DNA of 43,691 nt from Candidatus Poseidoniaceae archaeon (GTDB taxonomy: Archaea > Thermoplasmatota > Poseidoniia > Poseidoniales > Poseidoniaceae): positions 1 to 43,691 of the forward strand of contig JAQXFL010000005.1 of NCBI GenBank assembly GCA_029250345.1. The letters are read 5' to 3'. The notes below the pieces were generated by a model. The model ran no database searches, was not told where the DNA came from, and saw only the letters and a list, made by a program, of their open reading frames with translations. The first letter of the stretch is position 1; every line of letters starts with the position of its first letter. Both the position numbers and the translations under genes were made by a program. Shown piece after piece: positions 16,844 to 27,306 of this stretch.

Positions 16844-17305
16844 ATGAACGGCTCGATTGTGGGCCTTTTTGCAGCACCTGAAGGTGGAGTTCCCAAGCCA
16901 CGTGTTGAACAACTCGAAGTTCGCGACGATGGCTGTACAGGCGATTATCAACGAGACAAGAAGCATCATGGCGGCCCTGACCGCGCTGTTTGCCTGTTCA
17001 GTTCCGAAGTCATTTCTCATTTACAAGAGAGCGGACATCCGATCTACCCGGGTTCCGTTGGTGAGAATATTCTCGTCAAGGGAGTCCAATGGGAAAATGT
17101 CGGTATTGGCTCGATTTTCCGCTTTGCCGACCTCACTTTGGAAGTTACATCTGATGCGCCACCGTGTAAGACGATTCGCGATTCATTTACCAACGGTAGA
17201 TTCAAGGAAATCTCAGTGAAAACAGCACCTCACATGACACGCTGGTACGCCAAAGTCATCAAGCAAGGCAACGTCAAAATCGGTGATGATTTTGAAATCA
17301 ACTGA
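16844..17305 (+). CDS. MOSC domain protein (YiiM-like)
   Basis: 'DKKHHGGPDRAVCLFS', 'PGSVGENILV' and 'PCKTI' are typical MOSC elements. ATG lies 5 nt after the EF-2 stop (or GTG 16835 overlapping it). Confidence 0.8.
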   Translation: MNGSIVGLFAAPEGGVPKPRVEQLEVRDDGCTGDYQRDKKHHGGPDRAVCLFSSEVISHLQESGHPIYPGSVGENILVKGVQWENVGIGSIFRFADLTLEVTSDAPPCKTIRDSFTNGRFKEISVKTAPHMTRWYAKVIKQGNVKIGDDFEIN

Positions 17306-19112
17306 TTCGCTTTAATTGGAAGTCTGTTAATTCACGCAAGGCCTTCATTGCAGGTCCTTGTGGAATGCGGTCCAAACAAGCGTGGGCCTTTGCGTGGTAA
17401 TCGACCGCACGTTGCTTTGCATAGTCGATCGAACCGAGGTTGCCCAATGCCTTGAGTGCATCAGCAATGGCTTGAGCATCTGCAGCCTCGCCTTTTCCGA
17501 GAGCCGCAAGCAAGGTTTGTTTGTCTTCACTGTCAGGTTGTGCAAGCGCATGAATCACCATCAATGTCCTCTTACCTTGAGCTACATCAGAACCTGCTGG
17601 TTTTCCGAGTACATCTGAGTCGGACAGCACATCAATCAAATCATCCATAAGTTGGAAGCAGAGTCCGACAGCAAGACCCCAATCTGCCATACAGTCAATT
17701 GTTTCTTGGTCTGCACCGGCCATTCTTGCGCCAATTTCTGCACAGGTGAGGAACATGACAGCAGTCTTTCCTTCAATCATCTCGATGTAGTCGTCTTCCG
17801 ATACTGCGAGTTCATCTTCAAATTCGATATCCATCTGCTGACCTTCGCTGACGCGACGGACCATCCAGGCAATTCTGTTTACGAGTGGGGCTACATCGTT
17901 TGCTTGAAGCCCTTCAGCTTGTACTAATCGCTCGAACGCAATTGCAAGCATTGCATCACCGGCATTGATGGCGGTAGGGAGGTCGAACTCAATGTGGACG
18001 GCATTTCTGCCTCGTCGAACATCATCGTCATCCATGATATCATCGTGAACCAATGTGAAGTTGTGGACTGTTTCAATCGCTGCACCCACATCGAGCATTC
18101 CAGAGTGAGAGTCGCCAACCGCTTTTCCGACGAGCCATGGTAATGTTGCACGCAGCCGCTTTCCACCTCCATGAATGAGGTGGGTCATTGCAGCAGCCAG
18201 TCTTTCATGACGTGAGGCCATCAAGCTGTTCATGATACGTTGCTCAACCAACGGCTTTACCTCGAGAACAGAGATGTTGAGGCCAGCCCCCTCGGCTTCG
18301 GGTAGCATGTGTGTTACATCGCCCATGTCGTGTATTTCATCGTCGCTTAATGCGCTCAAAGCATCCGAATCTCCAATGGCGCTCCACCAGTCATCGTTCA
18401 TGATTCGAGCAGCAATGCATCGGAACCACGGTGCGACCGATCCATTGGAACGTTCCTCTTCGATGAGCATATCTTCCAATTCCTCTTGGGATACCCACAT
18501 GGTTTCCGAGACTTCGTTTTCGTTGATGTTGAGTTCAACGTCTTTCTGAGCAACTAGAATATGGTCGATTTCTCTTTCAATCCATGTTTCATTCATTCGT
18601 GCTGAATAACGCATCTTGGTCATGAAGGTAAAGTCGTCCGCCGAAATATGGCTCGGGTCGATTCCAAGTTCCTGTTCTAGTTTACGAATTGCAGCGGTTT
18701 TTACACCGAGCGCCCCTTCTTCAACCAATTCTTCGTCGCTGTGAAGCGGGTGTGAGCAGCAGGAATTCGCCCAGACCCCTGGGAATGTGACTTTGCCGTG
18801 TGCTCGACGTTGGAGCAGCAATCTCTTCTTTGAATCAAACAGCAGAACACTGAATGCACGGTGGTACGCTCCTGCGTTCCGATGAGCCGCAATTTTGGAC
18901 AGAGGTCCGAGTACTGCGTCCTTTTCATTGACTGCAATAATGGCTTCGGACATGAGTGTCGACTGCGTAGAATCAGCACCCAACGAGTCGAGTAAATCCC
19001 TCTCAGAATCAGACAGTTCGATATTCGGGACGTCTGTTATATCGTATCCGCTCATGTGAACCCCGAGTTCAATGGATTCGCGGTCGCTACATGAAGAGTT
19101 CTGTAAAGTCAT
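17298..19112 (-). CDS. Bifunctional fusion: type-1 isopentenyl-diphosphate isomerase (N) + geranylgeranyl/polyprenyl diphosphate synthase (C)
   Basis: N-terminal half: 'HRAFSVLLFDSKKRLLLQRRAHGKVTFPGVWANSCCSHPL' and 'EREIDHILV' (IDI1 Cys/Glu motifs, eukaryote-like CCSHP). C-terminal half: FARM 'LVHDDIMDDDDVRRGR' and SARM 'FQLMDDLID'. Start is uncertain (TTG 19121, ATG 19112 or ATG 19055). Confidence 0.85.
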   Translation of the reverse strand: MTLQNSSCSDRESIELGVHMSGYDITDVPNIELSDSERDLLDSLGADSTQSTLMSEAIIAVNEKDAVLGPLSKIAAHRNAGAYHRAFSVLLFDSKKRLLLQRRAHGKVTFPGVWANSCCSHPLHSDEELVEEGALGVKTAAIRKLEQELGIDPSHISADDFTFMTKMRYSARMNETWIEREIDHILVAQKDVELNINENEVSETMWVSQEELEDMLIEEERSNGSVAPWFRCIAARIMNDDWWSAIGDSDALSALSDDEIHDMGDVTHMLPEAEGAGLNISVLEVKPLVEQRIMNSLMASRHERLAAAMTHLIHGGGKRLRATLPWLVGKAVGDSHSGMLDVGAAIETVHNFTLVHDDIMDDDDVRRGRNAVHIEFDLPTAINAGDAMLAIAFERLVQAEGLQANDVAPLVNRIAWMVRRVSEGQQMDIEFEDELAVSEDDYIEMIEGKTAVMFLTCAEIGARMAGADQETIDCMADWGLAVGLCFQLMDDLIDVLSDSDVLGKPAGSDVAQGKRTLMVIHALAQPDSEDKQTLLAALGKGEAADAQAIADALKALGNLGSIDYAKQRAVDYHAKAHACLDRIPQGPAMKALRELTDFQLKRIS

Positions 19113-19154
19113 TTGACACAACTGCGGATGAAAGTGAAAAAATTGAGGTGCAGT

Positions 19155-19979
19155 TCACTGTTTGTGAGTGACAATTGTTCCTCGAACTGGATTTCCGAGC
19201 ATTGCCGCCAGAACTCGTTCGGGTTTGCCACCGTTGACCATGACGACATTGATTCCATGAGCGGCGACATGGGCTCCTCTTGCAGCTTTCAATCCGATAC
19301 CACCCGTGACATCGATGTCTGATTGGTGAACGCCCTCAAACGTAATCTCGGGAGTCCACACTTCGATGAGATCCTTTTCAGTGGCGTGCTCGGGTGGTAT
19401 GCGAAGCAGTCCGTCAACACCGCCAATGGCAAAGACAAGACGCTTTACATTTTCCAATTCCAACGAAAGCCGAACGACTAAGTCGTCGCCCGACAAGATT
19501 CCAAATTGCTTTTCACCCTCAACATTGACCACGTCACCAAAGGTGATGTGAACCGTGTTGTCGCTCTGTGCCGTGAAGTTATCAAGGCTACCTGCAAAAT
19601 CTGTTCCCGTGTTTGTGGCCCACAGGTGAGGTGGATGGACTATGCTTTGTATTCCGTACATTCCCAAGGCATCGCATACATGTTTGTTGAGTTGTAGCAT
19701 TTCAAGTCGGACTTGGTCTACAGCCTCTTTTTGACTGGAAAGTGTACTTCCTTCTGGTGTTTCAACATGAGGGATGTATCCCTCATTGAGCCTCCAAGTT
19801 TTAGCACGCAGATGTCCAAATGACCCTGCACCGTGTACAAGAATGACCTCGAGACCCGCCGCTTGACATTTTTCAACGGTTGATGCCAGTTGATTCAGCA
19901 CGGCCATGTTCGGTGTACAGAGTGATGATTTGTCGGTGATGAGGCCTCCACCCCATTTGATGACCACTCTGTCACGCAT
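19155..19979 (-). CDS. ipk: Isopentenyl phosphate kinase
   Basis: Amino-acid-kinase fold with 'VIKWGGGLITDK' and 'VHGAGSFGH'. Lies immediately upstream of the IDI-GGPPS gene on the same strand. Confidence 0.85.
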   Translation of the reverse strand: MRDRVVIKWGGGLITDKSSLCTPNMAVLNQLASTVEKCQAAGLEVILVHGAGSFGHLRAKTWRLNEGYIPHVETPEGSTLSSQKEAVDQVRLEMLQLNKHVCDALGMYGIQSIVHPPHLWATNTGTDFAGSLDNFTAQSDNTVHITFGDVVNVEGEKQFGILSGDDLVVRLSLELENVKRLVFAIGGVDGLLRIPPEHATEKDLIEVWTPEITFEGVHQSDIDVTGGIGLKAARGAHVAAHGINVVMVNGGKPERVLAAMLGNPVRGTIVTHKQ

Positions 19980-23241: not shown

Positions 23242-23302
23242 TGCAGAGTTTCCAACTTCTCTCTCCAAAGCCTTGATAGAAAGCCATTGTTGTGGGCATC
23301 TC

Positions 23303-24319
23303 ATGGCAGGCTTTGGTAACATACGGAAAGGACGACGCGAGGCCGTAGACAATCTTGCTTTCACTGAAGGTGGAGACTGCCCCAGGTGCGGTGGAGAATC
23401 TCAACCTTCGACGATGAATGGATATCTGAGCTGCGTTGCTTGCCAGCATGAGTGGAAAGACCCGAACCATGTTGATTCCTCGGGCCCTACTGAAATTCCA
23501 ACCTACCACCAGGACCGTGCCAAAATCGAAGAATTCCGTAAGGAGGTTGAAAGCGGTGGACTCGCTGGAGTTCTCGGTGTTGACAGTAATTTATCTGATG
23601 AGCAAGAAGCGTCGCTTTCTCGACTTGAAGACAAGTGGATGTCCGGCATGAAGGGGCATTACAACACAGCGACTGAGGAACGGAAACCACTCATGATTAG
23701 TTTCGATGACGACGATAACATCGTATCGACTGAAGTTGCAGCACTTACAATCGTAGCAAACGGCTTTGACGGTGGAGAAGAAATACGACTGGAATATCCT
23801 GGTAAGGGCACTGAGTTCTATTGTTTCAACGTTTCAGATCCTCACGGTTGGAGGCGTGGTACCTCAGCAGCACACACCGCTCGGTCAATTGCAAATGTAA
23901 TCAACAACAATTCTAATTTGGTCTATGCTAATCTCGAGGGTACAAGAATTTCATTCGAACTACGGAGCGAGGATTTGAAACCAGAATCACTCGTTCTGTT
24001 CGTTGATGACCCTGGAGGAACGGATATCGTTGCTGAGAAAAACGGAGTTGTATTGGATGCTCGAAACCTGCAAGATTTCGAGGATTACCGTAGTATTGTA
24101 GCGCTGGTTTTGGAAGATGGAATCATCTCGCCAAGCGAAGATCAACTGCTCTGGTCCATGCGTCAGCAACTTGGAATTGATGATGTATACCATATCCAAA
24201 TGGTATTGGAAATGTTTGGTGAGGATACGCTCAAGGAATGCACATCATGTGGCTCGATGGCTCGTCTCTATCCAGAATATGCTGCATGGTATTGTCAGTC
24301 CTGTGAAGAATGGTGCTGA
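23303..24319 (+). CDS. Uncharacterised protein with N- and C-terminal zinc ribbons
   Basis: 338 aa. 'CPRCGG-x15-CVAC' at the N-terminus and 'CTSCG-x14-CQSC' at the C-terminus. The central ~230 aa match no family I recognise. Confidence 0.6.
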   Translation: MAGFGNIRKGRREAVDNLAFTEGGDCPRCGGESQPSTMNGYLSCVACQHEWKDPNHVDSSGPTEIPTYHQDRAKIEEFRKEVESGGLAGVLGVDSNLSDEQEASLSRLEDKWMSGMKGHYNTATEERKPLMISFDDDDNIVSTEVAALTIVANGFDGGEEIRLEYPGKGTEFYCFNVSDPHGWRRGTSAAHTARSIANVINNNSNLVYANLEGTRISFELRSEDLKPESLVLFVDDPGGTDIVAEKNGVVLDARNLQDFEDYRSIVALVLEDGIISPSEDQLLWSMRQQLGIDDVYHIQMVLEMFGEDTLKECTSCGSMARLYPEYAAWYCQSCEEWC

Positions 24320-24429
24320 TTTCTTCGATAGTTCAGTTCAAGAATGGCATTTTTCCAACCTCAAGTGCGATTCTGTATGCGTGGCATCCTTCATAAGGTA
24401 GTTCACAATGGCAAGGGTAGGCGAGTGTT

Positions 24430-25455
24430 ATGGCAGAAGACGTATTGTATATTGGAATTGATTTGGGAACCTTCCGTTCGGTTATGGTTTCATCCGACAG
24501 CCACGAAGTAGAAGAGTTGACCGTTATCGGAACTCCGAAAGACCCGATTGCCCGTAATTTCCTCAAGCGAGATGTTCTCTTTGGTGAAGAAGCACTCAAA
24601 AATCGACTTGCACTCAACCTTTTCCGACCACTCGAACTTGGTGTTATCAAAGACACGCAAGAAGACCGTGAATTCATTGCACACTTTATCACCCACCTGA
24701 TTGGACTTTCCGACCCCGAAGACTACGATCGTGTCGTCGCTGTCATTGGTGCTCCTGCTGAAGCAAGTTATGTCGATAAGACTGCAATTTTCGACGCAGC
24801 TGCAGGTTCCGTAAACGCCGCTATGATTATTTCTGAACCATTCGCTGTTGCGTATGCACTGGACATGATTGAACACACTCTCGTCATTGATATTGGAGCA
24901 GGAACCGCAGATCTTTGCCGTGTTTACGGTACAATCCCTGGCCCTGGCGATCAAATGCACACCGGGCACGCTGGAGACTTTGTTGACCGAAAAATCATCG
25001 AAGAAGTGCAATCTAAGTACAGCGGTGCACAAATTACCAAGGATATGGCTCGCCGATGGAAGGAGCAATATTCCTTCGTAGGAACAGCATCCCCTGACGA
25101 ACCGGTTATGGTTGACTTCTCTATTGAAGGAAAAGCAATGAATCTCGATATTACCGACTGTATTCAGCGAGCATGTGAGTCTATTGTCGACCCTATCGTT
25201 GAAAACGTCAAGGAATTGATTTCTGGCTCGAACCCTGAGTATCACGACCAGTTCCGTCGAAACATGGTTCTCGCTGGTGGCGGCTCAGGAATCAAAGGCC
25301 TCGGGGCCATGATTGAGCGTAAACTCTCTGATATGGGCGATGTCAATGTACACGTCGTTGATGACCCGGTACGCTTGGGCGCAATGGGCGGTCTGCGACT
25401 TGCAATGGAAGTTCCTGAAGAAATGTGGAAGAACCTTACTCTCGCATCTCGCTGA
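24430..25455 (+). CDS. Actin-fold ATPase, MamK-family-like (MreB/MamK superfamily)
   Basis: Phosphate-1 'IGIDLGT', phosphate-2 'VIDIGAGTADLC', adenosine motif 'VLAGGGSGIKGL'. MamK-like stretches are 'GTIPGPGDQ', 'WKEQYSFVGT', 'NPEY' and 'DDPVRLGAMGGLRLA'. Confidence 0.8.
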   Translation: MAEDVLYIGIDLGTFRSVMVSSDSHEVEELTVIGTPKDPIARNFLKRDVLFGEEALKNRLALNLFRPLELGVIKDTQEDREFIAHFITHLIGLSDPEDYDRVVAVIGAPAEASYVDKTAIFDAAAGSVNAAMIISEPFAVAYALDMIEHTLVIDIGAGTADLCRVYGTIPGPGDQMHTGHAGDFVDRKIIEEVQSKYSGAQITKDMARRWKEQYSFVGTASPDEPVMVDFSIEGKAMNLDITDCIQRACESIVDPIVENVKELISGSNPEYHDQFRRNMVLAGGGSGIKGLGAMIERKLSDMGDVNVHVVDDPVRLGAMGGLRLAMEVPEEMWKNLTLASR

Positions 25456-25472
25456 GATTAAGACTTCAAGTG

Positions 25473-25490
25473 CATTCGCTCGCACGAATG
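25473..25490 (+). terminator. Hairpin plus T-rich tail after the actin-like gene
   Basis: Inverted repeat cattcg / cgaatg (6 bp, 6-nt loop) starts 18 nt after the stop and is followed by 'ttgtt'. This is weak as an archaeal terminator. Confidence 0.3.
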
Positions 25491-25589
25491 TTGTTCACCT
25501 GTCTCATCGTATAGTTTTCATTAACTCAATGATTGAATTTCACTCGCAACCTACAACATCTCTTTCAATAAGACTGCCAACATAACCGC

Positions 25590-26390
25590 ATGGACGATTC
25601 CGATTCTGCAGGTGAATCAATCAGCAATCCCCCTGAAAAGATTGTCTTAGTTGATGGACCAGCGCTTTCTGGTGTCGAATCTTATTCAAGTTCTACACAG
25701 GGTGCAAACCCATATTCGGAGGACAACGCAGGTGTATCAAGCCGTCCACAGTGGGTTTGGTTTGTCGCAGGTCTTTTCATTCTGCCAATTTTTGTAGCGA
25801 TTGCAAGTACATCATTTGCTACCTTAGCTGATTCTGGACTGTTTACTTCGTACTCTTCTGAAGAATCTACTTCGGAGAATAATGTTTCTTTTGGTACCGA
25901 AGCCTACGCAGTTCGTGGATTTTATATGTCCTCAGAATTTAACTCTAATTTTGCAACTCATGGTTACTGGGATCTTACAGTGGAAACTGAAACCTGGGAA
26001 GGATACATTTCGGGTTATGGGTCGCAAAAAGTACGTGACATTGAGCAGCCCGTTGAGGCTGATGATACAGGTAAAAATTGGTGGGTGGCAGAGTTCCATG
26101 ATGCGAATCAGAATTTTTCTGTTTATATTTCGCAAGAGGGTAATTCGGTGTTCATAGCCTATCCTCCTTCAACCTCTGAACCAACATACACTCACTACTA
26201 CTGGAAAGACTCAGGTGGAATCCTTGATTTTGGGTCTCTTGCTGTTTTGGTCTGGCCAGTTTCTGCCATTGGTGGGATTGCCTGGGGCTTTGCTAAAAAG
26301 CGTCCATCTTTTTCGTACGGTGTAATGATTTGGGGCTCAATTGTTCTTCTTGCCACCGTTTTCATTGCGTTCATTGCCCTGGCACTTTAG
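25590..26390 (+). CDS. Membrane protein: acidic/Ser-rich N-terminal tail, TM, ~130-aa Tyr/Trp-rich loop domain, two C-terminal TMs (hypothetical)
   Basis: 266-aa ORF. TM1 'WVWFVAGLFILPIFVAIAS'. C-terminal TMs 'LAVLVWPVSAIGGIAWGF' and 'VMIWGSIVLLATVFIAFIALAL'. Confidence 0.55.
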   Translation: MDDSDSAGESISNPPEKIVLVDGPALSGVESYSSSTQGANPYSEDNAGVSSRPQWVWFVAGLFILPIFVAIASTSFATLADSGLFTSYSSEESTSENNVSFGTEAYAVRGFYMSSEFNSNFATHGYWDLTVETETWEGYISGYGSQKVRDIEQPVEADDTGKNWWVAEFHDANQNFSVYISQEGNSVFIAYPPSTSEPTYTHYYWKDSGGILDFGSLAVLVWPVSAIGGIAWGFAKKRPSFSYGVMIWGSIVLLATVFIAFIALAL

Positions 26391-26445
26391 TTTGAGTAGA
26401 GCGGATTCAAATTGAAAGCGCAGTTGCCCATGTAGCATATTTGTC

Positions 26446-27306
26446 TTATTGCTGGCTCATCCAAACCGTCCATGCATTGGCGACTTCATCCTTCTCCTTG
26501 TTCGAGTTGACACCCGCCATACTTCCAAAGAATTTCGTCATGAGAACTGGAGTAACAGTTTCACCTATTTTGACATGGCCCATTTTCAATTCAGTTCCTT
26601 GCTTATCTCCGGGGTTAGCATCAGTAAATGTACCGTGCCCAAACAGTCTTTCGATGATCACCCAGCCCGACTTTCCTGTGACCTGTATCCACTTAGGCTT
26701 AATTTTCTTAATAATTGCTTCAATTAATCGCATGTTTGCACCAAGAGCAGGGTCCGTCTGTATGAGGTCTGCAAGGTGTTCAGGGTTGAGGCCAGTTTTA
26801 TGTGAGAAGTATTGAACTGTGTCCACTTCGACGAGGTGCCTGTGGCAAACCATTTGCTTCCAATCAGCAGTAGAAAAGTCTGAAGCAGTTTCAGTAAACC
26901 AGTGTTTACCTAGCCAGCTGCCGTATTTGTTAAAGTATCGACGATTCCTTTCTTCCCGCAGGAAATACTGGTTTTGGAACTGAATCCAATTCTCTAGATC
27001 ACTCACTTTTCCTGAATTTCTGTAGTTTTGTAGGCTTTCCATTGGTAGATTGATGTTCACTCTCTGGAAATTTTCATCAAAATTTCGCTTCGGGTTGATG
27101 CCCAAGAGAAGAACACACTCACCAGGTGGGACATTATCGATGTCACCCACGTATGTATGCGGAGGTACATTTGGGTCGAGCATTGTGTCGCCTTTGAGGT
27201 TGAGTGCTCGGTTCAAACGAGCTACTGCAGCTTCGTGGTCTTGTTCGATAACAGCTAGCCATTCGTCCATGACCATCTTAATCACCATCTCAGTATGTTT
27301 TGGCAA
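26446..27306 (-). CDS. Hypothetical protein with uracil-DNA-glycosylase-like motif order
   Basis: 286-aa ORF in a visibly more AT-rich stretch. 'CVLLLGINPK' recalls MUG/TDG motif 1. Start is uncertain: ATG 27306 overlaps the proS end, and ATG 27288 lies directly after the proS stop. Confidence 0.5.
   Translation of the reverse strand: MPKHTEMVIKMVMDEWLAVIEQDHEAAVARLNRALNLKGDTMLDPNVPPHTYVGDIDNVPPGECVLLLGINPKRNFDENFQRVNINLPMESLQNYRNSGKVSDLENWIQFQNQYFLREERNRRYFNKYGSWLGKHWFTETASDFSTADWKQMVCHRHLVEVDTVQYFSHKTGLNPEHLADLIQTDPALGANMRLIEAIIKKIKPKWIQVTGKSGWVIIERLFGHGTFTDANPGDKQGTELKMGHVKIGETVTPVLMTKFFGSMAGVNSNKEKDEVANAWTVWMSQQ

Follow-up and report, generated by a model that had tools for sequence, protein, structure and literature searches.

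Introduction

MamK is the actin that positions magnetosomes in magnetotactic bacteria, and its ATP-dependent polymers are parallel, non-staggered filaments of two strands. In the MamK systems described so far, MamK operates by means of adaptors and of proteins with coiled coils (PMC12748827, PMC13170167). Actins of the MamK branch already are known in organisms that are not magnetotactic, and NCBI names such proteins 'MamK family'. BeeR (PDB 8R2N) is a MamK-related actin of Verrucomicrobiota that forms a three-stranded tube (PMC11929497). Among archaeal actins, the subfamily nearest to MamK was reported to be salactin, a protein implicated in partitioning of the chromosome and not in shape (PMC10746226), and 'some archaeal' members were placed in the MamK branch in earlier work (Yutin et al., 2009; PMC2651865). 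The gene described here, termed actin-1, is located in a 43,691-nucleotide stretch of DNA from a Candidatus Poseidoniaceae archaeon (contig JAQXFL010000005.1, assembly GCA_029250345.1), the whole of which is referred to as the window. MamK is the closest characterized relative of the actin-1 protein both by sequence and by structure. The evidence as a whole makes it probable that actin-1 is a divergent actin of the MamK branch, inherited vertically in Marine Group II (MGII), which would form an ATP-driven cytoplasmic filament that operates with a zinc-ribbon adaptor. Actin-1 adds a new branch, accompanied by a new candidate partner and a paralog, to a family that already was known, and is an extension of that family instead of a new kind of system.

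The Poseidoniales, or MGII, rank with Earth's most abundant archaea, and in the surface ocean no planktonic archaea exceed them in abundance. Their cells are wall-less and planktonic. To our knowledge, no member of the Poseidoniales has been brought into culture, and next to nothing about their cell biology has been described. A full-text literature search found no paper that links MamK-type actins to MGII or Poseidoniales.

Results

Actin-1 Is More Similar to MamK than to MreB

24430..25455, + strand: actin-1 gene (MamK-type, Poseidoniales), an ATG-initiated open reading frame (ORF) of 341 amino acids, coordinates including the stop codon

The original prediction, which was made from the DNA letters without database searches, had described the product of this gene as an actin-fold ATPase of 341 residues with affinity for MamK rather than MreB. 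Reading of the translation at 24430-25455 bore out the actin-fold assignment and all of the motifs that had been quoted: IGIDLGT (residues 8-14), VIDIGAGTADLC (152-163), GTIPGPGDQ (167-175), KEQYSFVGT (211-219), NPEY (268-271), VLAGGGSGIKGL (280-291), and DPVRLGAMGGLRLAMEVPEEMW (312-333). The five nucleotide-binding motifs of actins (phosphate 1, connect 1, phosphate 2, adenosine, and connect 2) all are intact. The presence of IGIDLGT, SEPF, VIDIGAGT, and LAGGGSGIKGL, together with a modeled four-subdomain actin fold, places the protein in the polymerizing-actin group of the ASKHA superfamily. The Glu residue of SEPF and the Asp residue of VIDIGAGT are conserved and align with E143 and D161 of MamK, which we take to be the residues that are altered in ATPase-dead MamK. 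The ATGGCA start context of the gene is kept in 20 of 20 aligned orthologous loci, and the antisense ORFs that overlap actin-1 are mechanical by-products of the ORF list.

Residue-level alignment revealed that solved MamK carries the same strings in the forms DIGAGT, GTVPGPEDQ, KEQFSFVGT, QPEYQ, and DP..G..GALRLAEELPPQYW. The elements common to the two proteins are DIGAGT, GT[IV]PGP.DQ, KEQ[FY]SFVGT, PEY, and the C-terminal DP..G..G.LRLA...P..W. At the position of DIGAGT, both BeeR and MreB possess DIGGGT; alignment with the solved MamK, BeeR, and MreB proteins thus agreed with the earlier reading of this motif as MamK-like. Merely seven residues precede the phosphate-1 motif at the N-terminus of actin-1 and the protein therefore lacks an amphipathic helix of the MreB type in this region.

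The scores of actin-1 with curated NCBIfam models were as follows:

MamK (NF040964): 360.2 bits, E = 9e-108, cut-off 400 bits
BeeR (NF053558): 212 bits, cut-off 530
MreB (PRK13927): 91.6 bits, cut-off 293
mreB (TIGR00904): 81.3 bits, cut-off 365.75
Salactin (NF053533): 68.5 bits, cut-off 400

Overall, the MreB-specific NCBIfam models produced 55-92 bits against cut-offs of 293-515, and actin-1 lies below the curated cut-offs for MreB, BeeR, and salactin alike. Matches to the EutJ, HscA, DnaK, and FtsA models were negligible, those to Hsp70/HscA being partial with E values of 1e-4 to 4e-3. The profile search proposed in the original prediction thus identified MamK as the best match (360 versus 92 bits for MreB), and not Hsp70, sugar kinases, or plain MreB. 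In Pfam the top match was MreB_Mbl at 91 bits, with Salactin at 60 bits and volactin at 24.5 bits, the last of these being under the gathering score; MreB_Mbl heads this list because Pfam contains no MamK model. Among PDB sequences, three MamK entries matched residues 2-336 at E = 4e-76 to 5e-75, compared to 6e-44 for BeeR, ~1e-12 to 1e-13 for MreB, and ~1e-4 for eukaryotic actin. By the E values for the NCBIfam MamK model and the PDB MamK entries, the likeness of actin-1 to MamK is far above chance. No ParM or crenactin models were present among the Pfam, NCBIfam, and PDB matches of actin-1.

The AlphaFold2 model of actin-1, which was built on a 45-sequence alignment, was confident, with a predicted local distance difference test (pLDDT) value of 92.2 and a predicted template modeling (pTM) score of 0.88. 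The best Foldseek match of the model was the MamK filament subunit 5ljv_A, with a template modeling (TM) score of 0.91/0.96, a root-mean-square deviation (rmsd) of 1.6 Å, and 38% identity. BeeR (TM 0.86) and MreB (~0.8) gave lower values. The model resembles MamK in the filament state more closely than it does the crystal form of the MamK monomer (rmsd 2.7-4.1 Å). The top 50 PDB fold matches comprised MamK, BeeR, MreB, actin, and actin-related subunits of actin complexes. Over trimmed alignment columns, actin-1 is 39% identical to MamK, 33% identical to BeeR, and 27% identical to MreB. Public databases label actin-1 proteins as MreB or hypothetical, and the NCBI (PGAP) and JGI annotations employ the name 'rod shape-determining protein'. 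Judged by the profile, alignment, and fold comparisons, the MreB name on MGII actin-1 entries is a mislabel.

Position of Actin-1 Relative to the MamK Family

The bit scores of other proteins with the NCBIfam MamK model provide a calibration for actin-1:

Unlabeled close MamK relative (P0152): 508 bits
AMB-1 MamK-like: 472 bits
Nitrospira protein, named 'MamK family' by NCBI: 425 bits
Gemmatimonadota protein: 412 bits
KSB1 fusion protein: 402 bits
Acidobacteriota protein: 393 bits
P0131 (taxon not labeled): 389 bits
ANME-2 archaeal protein: 371 bits
Ortholog of actin-1 in Marine Group IIb (MGIIb): 367.5 bits
MGII actin-2: 330 bits

On this continuum of scores actin-1 sits at the fringe and would be considered a member of the MamK family in the broad sense only. 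In the strict sense, defined by the curated cut-off, by clade, and by magnetosome context, actin-1 is not MamK. The family assignment made originally stands insofar as MamK is the best profile and structural match, and fails insofar as the protein scores under the 400-bit cut-off and lies outside the magnetosome MamK clade.

An exhaustive phmmer search of 1.84 billion cluster representatives retrieved 150 representatives only at E < 1e-30, and outside the Poseidoniales none was >48% identical to actin-1. A neighbor-joining tree of 91 sequences was constructed from 334 columns with 100 bootstraps and with Thermotoga maritima MreB as root. The actin-1 proteins of Poseidoniales formed a clade of their own with 100% support, which was sister to the Poseidoniales actin-2 family (92%). 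This archaeal pair joined, with weak support (50%), a clade made up of long bacterial fusions. The actin-1 clade was outside both the AMB-1 MamK/MamK-like clade and the BeeR clade. The phylogeny therefore recovered the separate archaeal clade that had been envisaged, but did not nest it with magnetosome MamK. The placement is provisional because a distance method only was used.

The closest relatives outside MGII (P0124-P0139; L087:6001-8364) are bacterial proteins of 500-1232 amino acids that begin with a conserved coiled coil (...EKxKFxEWAxYFG...) and end with the MamK domain, the two being separated by a low-complexity or disordered linker that is hundreds of residues long. One of the genes is in a bacterial gene context and another is labeled candidate division KSB1. 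No published description of this fused architecture was found, and Pfam searches with the N-terminal extensions gave nothing. Homology of these N-termini, in relatives of 700-1232 amino acids, with the zinc-ribbon protein or the 426-residue coiled-coil protein of MGII, both of which are described below, was considered and rejected: a hidden Markov model of 13 N-termini had a best E value of 0.11, with unrelated frames.

Metagenome-assembled genomes (MAGs) of ANME-2/Methanosarcinales encode a MamK-type actin (P0142 cluster) of 354-366 amino acids that is 40% identical to actin-1 and is annotated as MreB. The protein scores 371 bits with the NCBIfam MamK model and has no salactin match at E ≤ 1e-10. 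On this profile evidence, ANME-2/Methanosarcinales are a second archaeal lineage with MamK-type actins. The statement in the original prediction that the archaeal actins described so far belong to other branches was too strong in view of this lineage, of the reported proximity of salactin to MamK (PMC10746226), and of the archaeal members noted by Yutin et al. (2009; PMC2651865).

Actin-1 Is Resident in Marine Group II

Scanning of GTDB species representatives with actin-1 yielded 218 relatives, the best 80 of which were used for comparison of loci. Nearly all of these 80 derive from MAGs or single-cell genomes labeled Poseidoniaceae, Poseidonia, Poseidoniales, 'Methanobacteriota', or 'Euryarchaeota'. 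The contigs are up to 630 kb in length, and two of the proteins are 100% identical to actin-1. The window itself is a chromosome segment of Poseidoniaceae (Marine Group IIa, MGIIa). Annotation covered every ORF of ≥110 amino acids in the 43.7 kb, and each either represented a housekeeping or metabolic gene or had no match. The genes include those for proteasome alpha, SBDS, exosome subunits Rrp4, Rrp41, and Rrp42, prefoldin beta, diphthamide synthase, ribosomal protein S7, and aEF-2. Also present are a NUDIX-polyprenyl synthase fusion, an amino acid (AA) kinase that resembles isopentenyl phosphate kinase (IPK), Tpt1, thiolase, archaeal-type ProRS, a split transketolase, transaldolase, and menaquinone genes of the futalosine pathway. 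No magnetosome families (mam genes and others) were detected among ORFs of this size, no integrase or transposase was present among the window ORFs, and mreC, mreD, rodA, and penicillin-binding protein (PBP) genes were absent from the window. No tRNAs or Rfam structured RNAs were found in the window, and IMG/VR held no relative of actin-1. The guanine-plus-cytosine (GC) content stays even along the window, with a dip to 0.45 in 25456-27306.

Comparison of window proteins with the 80 loci by tblastn revealed identities of 89-100% for actin-1, ~80% for thiolase, 63-95% for the zinc-ribbon protein, 48-92% for the AA kinase, and 37-90% for the ORF that follows the thiolase gene. Thus, actin-1 is more conserved than the neighboring genes that were compared. 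In Thalassarchaeaceae (MGIIb) actin-1 still is 81% identical and synteny is retained. The order of the IPK, Tpt1, thiolase, zinc-ribbon, and actin-1 genes is kept across MGIIa and MGIIb, whereas genes 3′ of actin-1 show no conservation across the 80 loci. Pairwise ratios of non-synonymous to synonymous substitution rates (dN/dS) for actin-1 are 0.004-0.04, with dS often saturated, values which point to very strong purifying selection, as would be seen for a structural protein under tight constraint. Overall, actin-1 is resident in MGII and probably is vertically inherited there. The archaeal genes of the window, devoid of integrase and transposase, match the housekeeping setting that had been described for actin-1, and the Poseidoniaceae synteny on contigs of up to 630 kb substantiates the view of actin-1 as a resident gene of an uncultured archaeon. 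The suspicion of a contaminant contig, raised at the outset as a possible refutation, is contradicted by the location of actin-1 within conserved archaeal synteny on MGII contigs.

Two of the loci, L044 (NZEQ01000006.1; 'Verrucomicrobiales bacterium') and L076 (CALDQY010000264.1; 'Rhodobiaceae bacterium'), bear bacterial labels yet contain MGII actin-1. The label of L044 is wrong because this locus carries the complete MGII synteny, and both probably are misbinned archaeal contigs in bacterial MAGs.

The Zinc-Ribbon Gene Upstream of Actin-1

23303..24319, + strand: zinc-ribbon gene (candidate partner), 338 amino acids, directly 5′ of actin-1
24389..24398, + strand: CTTCATAAGG element, centered ~36 nucleotides 5′ of the actin-1 ATG
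24420..24425, + strand: GGCGAG (GGTGAG elsewhere), purine-rich, 5-10 nucleotides 5′ of the actin-1 ATG, conserved G..AG block

The zinc-ribbon gene is located directly 5′ of actin-1 and shares its orientation in each locus that has sufficient upstream flank. The mechanical ORF begins at a TTG codon at 23273, whereas the conserved start is the ATG at 23303 (MAGFG...). The protein is 63-95% identical in Poseidoniaceae and 54-55% identical in Thalassarchaeaceae. The 287 homologs all are from marine metagenomes, and every one that is named for an organism belongs to an MGII/Thermoplasmatota archaeon. The alignment displays 4+4 invariant or near-invariant Cys residues. An N-terminal zinc ribbon (CPRCGG...C..C.HEW) is followed by helical linkers, a strongly conserved beta-rich central domain (NGFDGGEEIRLEYPG.GTEFY ... 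GW..G..TARSI), a C-terminal three-helix bundle (DY...V...L.DGIISPSEDQ..W..R), and a C-terminal zinc ribbon (KEC..C...A......W.C..C..W). Pfam provided a marginal Zn_ribbon match only. The protein is acidic throughout, with a pI of 4.5 for the whole and of 4.05-5.5 for every domain. The conserved adjacency suggests the zinc-ribbon protein as the best adaptor candidate for actin-1.

Several more specific proposals for this protein were set aside. Foldseek matches of its model to flagellin, phage tail proteins, and Fab fragments (TM ≤ 0.25) were not credible. A TerB-like C-terminal bundle, suspected on inspection by eye, was without Pfam support, and a match to an ENT domain was non-significant (E 0.24). 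A DNA-binding adaptor role of the ParR type is disfavored by the acidity of all the domains, which is weak evidence because MGII proteins generally look acidic.

The spacer between the zinc-ribbon gene and actin-1 is 110 bp in length and mostly unconserved. Within it, CTTCATAA(G/A) keeps the same spacing to the ATG in 19 aligned Poseidoniaceae loci, and the CTTCATAAGG element probably is the archaeal TATA box of a promoter that belongs to actin-1 itself. The GG(C/T)GAG block resembles a Shine-Dalgarno site and is likely to serve actin-1 in this way. Separately, a perfect palindrome, TTCTATAGAA, is situated just 3′ of the zinc-ribbon stop codon and ~100 nucleotides 5′ of the actin-1 ATG in most Poseidoniaceae loci (for example, L007, L012, and L019), and is degenerate in the window (TTCTTCGATAG, 24321-24331). 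The palindrome might serve as the site of a regulator or as a further TATA element, or might be a motif associated with a terminator.

A Second MamK-Type Gene in Poseidoniales

L081:6001-7008, + strand: actin-2, also in L082, L083, and L089-L098
L081:7101-8381, + strand: acidic coiled-coil protein (P0301), 426 amino acids, always 3′ of actin-2

A second MamK-type gene of Poseidoniales, actin-2 (P0127 family), encodes proteins of 334-336 amino acids that are 45% identical to actin-1. Actin-2 is conserved at 84-100% in MAGs labeled Poseidoniaceae and Thalassarchaeaceae, and resides at a fixed locus that consists of a Peptidase_S8 gene (~950 amino acids), actin-2, the gene for the 426-residue coiled-coil protein, and then PcrB. 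JGI names the coiled-coil protein 'chromosome segregation ATPase', and Pfam gives only weak matches to crescentin rod and tropomyosin. The protein is a candidate partner of actin-2. A contig with both actin-1 and actin-2 was not found in the look-ups made, in which actin-2 (P0512), the zinc-ribbon gene (P0334), and actin-1 (P0005, P0006) were on different contigs; co-occurrence of the two actins in one genome accordingly is an inference.

Other Features of the Window

25590-26390, downstream of actin-1: predicted membrane protein, 266 amino acids, in the closest relatives (L001-L005) only
26446-27306, − strand: protein of 286 amino acids, in L001-L005 only
17298-19121, − strand: NUDIX and polyprenyl synthetase fusion, 607 amino acids
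22351-23241, + strand: ORF of 296 amino acids
39948-42161, − strand: WD40 beta-propeller protein, 737 amino acids

The region 25456-27306 is strain-variable. The 266- and 286-residue proteins encoded there diverge fast (37-57% and 70-92% identity) and have no Pfam match. The 607-residue fusion protein adjoins the AA kinase (19155-19979), is kept in MGIIb (L084), and may be a Nudix protein resembling isopentenyl diphosphate isomerase (IDI) joined to geranylgeranyl diphosphate (GGPP) synthase in an isoprenoid lipid cluster. The 296-residue ORF overlaps the stop codon region of the thiolase gene by 47 nucleotides, is 37-90% identical among loci, and has a single weak match to OB_ChsH2_C (DUF35-like; E 0.014). 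It is missing from MGIIb and from some MGIIa loci, where another thiolase stands. The WD40 protein is encoded between futalosine-pathway menaquinone genes.

Discussion

The actin-1 protein is predicted from its motifs to bind and hydrolyze ATP in the canonical actin-fold pocket, and its modeled fold and family suggest that it polymerizes into cytoplasmic filaments resembling those of MamK, with a cytoskeletal role. As actin-1 possesses no membrane-targeting segment of its own, the filaments probably act by way of an adaptor, for which the 338-residue double-zinc-ribbon protein is the best candidate. The proposed function of filament and adaptor together is to place or segregate some structure within the cell, or to organize cell shape or polarity. 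The zinc-ribbon protein may couple the filament to cargo or regulate it, as the MamK-MamJ/MamY/McaAB, ParM-ParR, and crenactin-arcadin systems suggest by analogy. The family offers a precedent in the coiled-coil partners of actin-1 relatives, which are fused in bacteria or adjacent in the case of MGII actin-2. Actin-1 is unconnected to magnetosomes and is not a component of an MreB/peptidoglycan elongasome. An ancient transfer from bacteria to the MGII ancestor is possible and is compatible with this explanation.

A number of points weigh against this interpretation. Actin-1 is only 38-39% identical to MamK and misses the curated MamK cut-off, and the backbone of the neighbor-joining tree has <25% support. 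Polymerization, ATPase activity, and partner interaction are predicted from sequence and models. The zinc-ribbon protein has no recognizable function, and its AlphaFold2 model is weak (pLDDT 69, pTM 0.36). Adjacency of the two genes need not signify physical interaction because actin-1 and the zinc-ribbon gene appear to be promoted separately. Moreover, residue D273 of actin-1 aligns with A278 of MamK, and A278D is an engineered non-polymerizing version of MamK according to the title of entry 5ljw. The Asp residue is invariant in MGII actin-1. As the column is variable across the family, in which Asp and Glu are common, D273 is a caveat and not a refutation; filament contacts at this position may differ in actin-1 instead of being absent.

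The alternative that survives best is that the actin-1 filament works alone in general shape, division, or polarity, with the zinc-ribbon gene as a mere syntenic neighbor. The conserved promoter-like element of actin-1 in an otherwise unconserved spacer is in keeping with independence of the two genes, and the whole upstream block is syntenic such that their adjacency could reflect a frozen gene order. The zinc-ribbon protein also diverges much faster than actin-1 (54-95% versus 80-100% identity). However, the ORF between the thiolase and zinc-ribbon genes comes and goes and the downstream region varies, whereas the zinc-ribbon-actin pair is unbroken from MGIIa to MGIIb, and the zinc-ribbon family and the actin-1 clade share one narrow phyletic range. 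We therefore regard a solitary filament as rather unlikely and favor the coupled filament and adaptor.

The invariant D273, at the very position where A278D abolishes polymerization of MamK, could instead signify that actin-1 is a non-polymerizing ATPase with a chaperone-like or regulatory function that acquired an interface-breaking residue. Asp or Glu is natural in this column in many family members, however, and the resemblance of the AlphaFold2 model to the filament state of MamK (1.6 Å versus 2.7-4.1 Å) argues for a polymerizing protein. Values of dN/dS ≤ 0.04 and 80% identity between MGIIa and MGIIb are typical of surface-constrained filament formers, and similarity to Hsp70/HscA is negligible. 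Loss of polymerization accordingly is very improbable.

An identity as a true MreB, that is, as a membrane-bound shape determinant, would agree with the names in databases, with MreB_Mbl as the top Pfam match, and with a fold that resembles MreB at a TM score of ~0.8. The MreB-specific NCBIfam scores set against both their own cut-offs and the MamK score, the PDB matches (~1e-12 to 1e-13 for MreB versus ~1e-76 for MamK), and the identities of 27% and 39%, respectively, oppose this assignment, as do the absence of the N-terminal amphipathic helix and of mreC, mreD, rodA, and PBP genes from the window. We know of no peptidoglycan elongasomes in archaea. Hence, there is little to recommend actin-1 as MreB. 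Derivation from a bacterial contaminant, a misbinned contig, a mobile element, or a virus, to which the bacterial labels of 2 of the 80 loci and the mostly bacterial nature of nameable relatives outside MGII might be taken to point, can be dismissed for practical purposes in view of the dense archaeal informational genes and even GC content of the window, the same synteny in ~78 contigs labeled as MGII, the erroneous label of L044 itself, the lack of integrase, transposase, and tRNA genes in the window, and the absence of relatives in IMG/VR.

A broader proposal, which we put forward tentatively, is that MGII maintain a dedicated cytoskeleton of two MamK-type actins in which actin-1 with the zinc-ribbon adaptor and actin-2 with the coiled-coil partner jointly position or segregate cargo. 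The cargo in that event may be the chromosome, the archaellum or chemosensory pole, or storage bodies. If correct, MamK-type filaments would constitute a general prokaryotic means of positioning organelles and cargo that predates magnetosomes or reaches far beyond them, and the two actins would be a first handle on MGII cell biology. Independently of this proposal, the analysis corrects a systematic annotation error that affects thousands of entries named MreB or 'rod shape-determining', extends the MamK branch firmly into Archaea (MGII and ANME-2/Methanosarcinales), and supplies directly testable candidates for MGII cell biology.

Comparison with Known Systems

Among characterized proteins, actin-1 is alike to MamK (PDB 5LJV, 5LJW, and 5JYG; NF040964) in length and in the lack of extra domains. 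Neither protein possesses an intrinsic membrane anchor, and adaptor-dependent action is to be expected. Actin-1 differs in its archaeal, non-magnetotactic host and in the absence of mam genes nearby. MamK has MamJ, MamY, and McaA/B as partners, whereas the neighbor of actin-1 is the zinc-ribbon protein, and the Ala residue at A278 of MamK is replaced by Asp in actin-1. BeeR is a precedent for an actin of the MamK branch in a non-magnetotactic organism and is the second-best match of actin-1 in both sequence and fold. However, actin-1 possesses neither the disordered N-terminal domain nor the DIGGGT string of BeeR, and the two are in separate clades.

Salactin and volactin (PF25229 and PF25216) are archaeal actins like actin-1, and the chromosome-partitioning role is a plausible functional analogy. 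They belong to another archaeal lineage and match weakly, and actin-1 is without the long charged N-terminal tail. MreB of bacteria and of Methanobacteriales/Methanopyrus has superfamily and fold in common with actin-1, but its score is a quarter of the MamK score. In the crenactin/arcadin and ParM/ParR systems, as at the actin-1 locus, the actin gene is beside a gene for a small lineage-specific partner that couples or regulates the filaments. Neither actin-1 nor its candidate partner has specific sequence similarity to components of these systems, and the actin-1 locus is chromosomal and not plasmid-borne.

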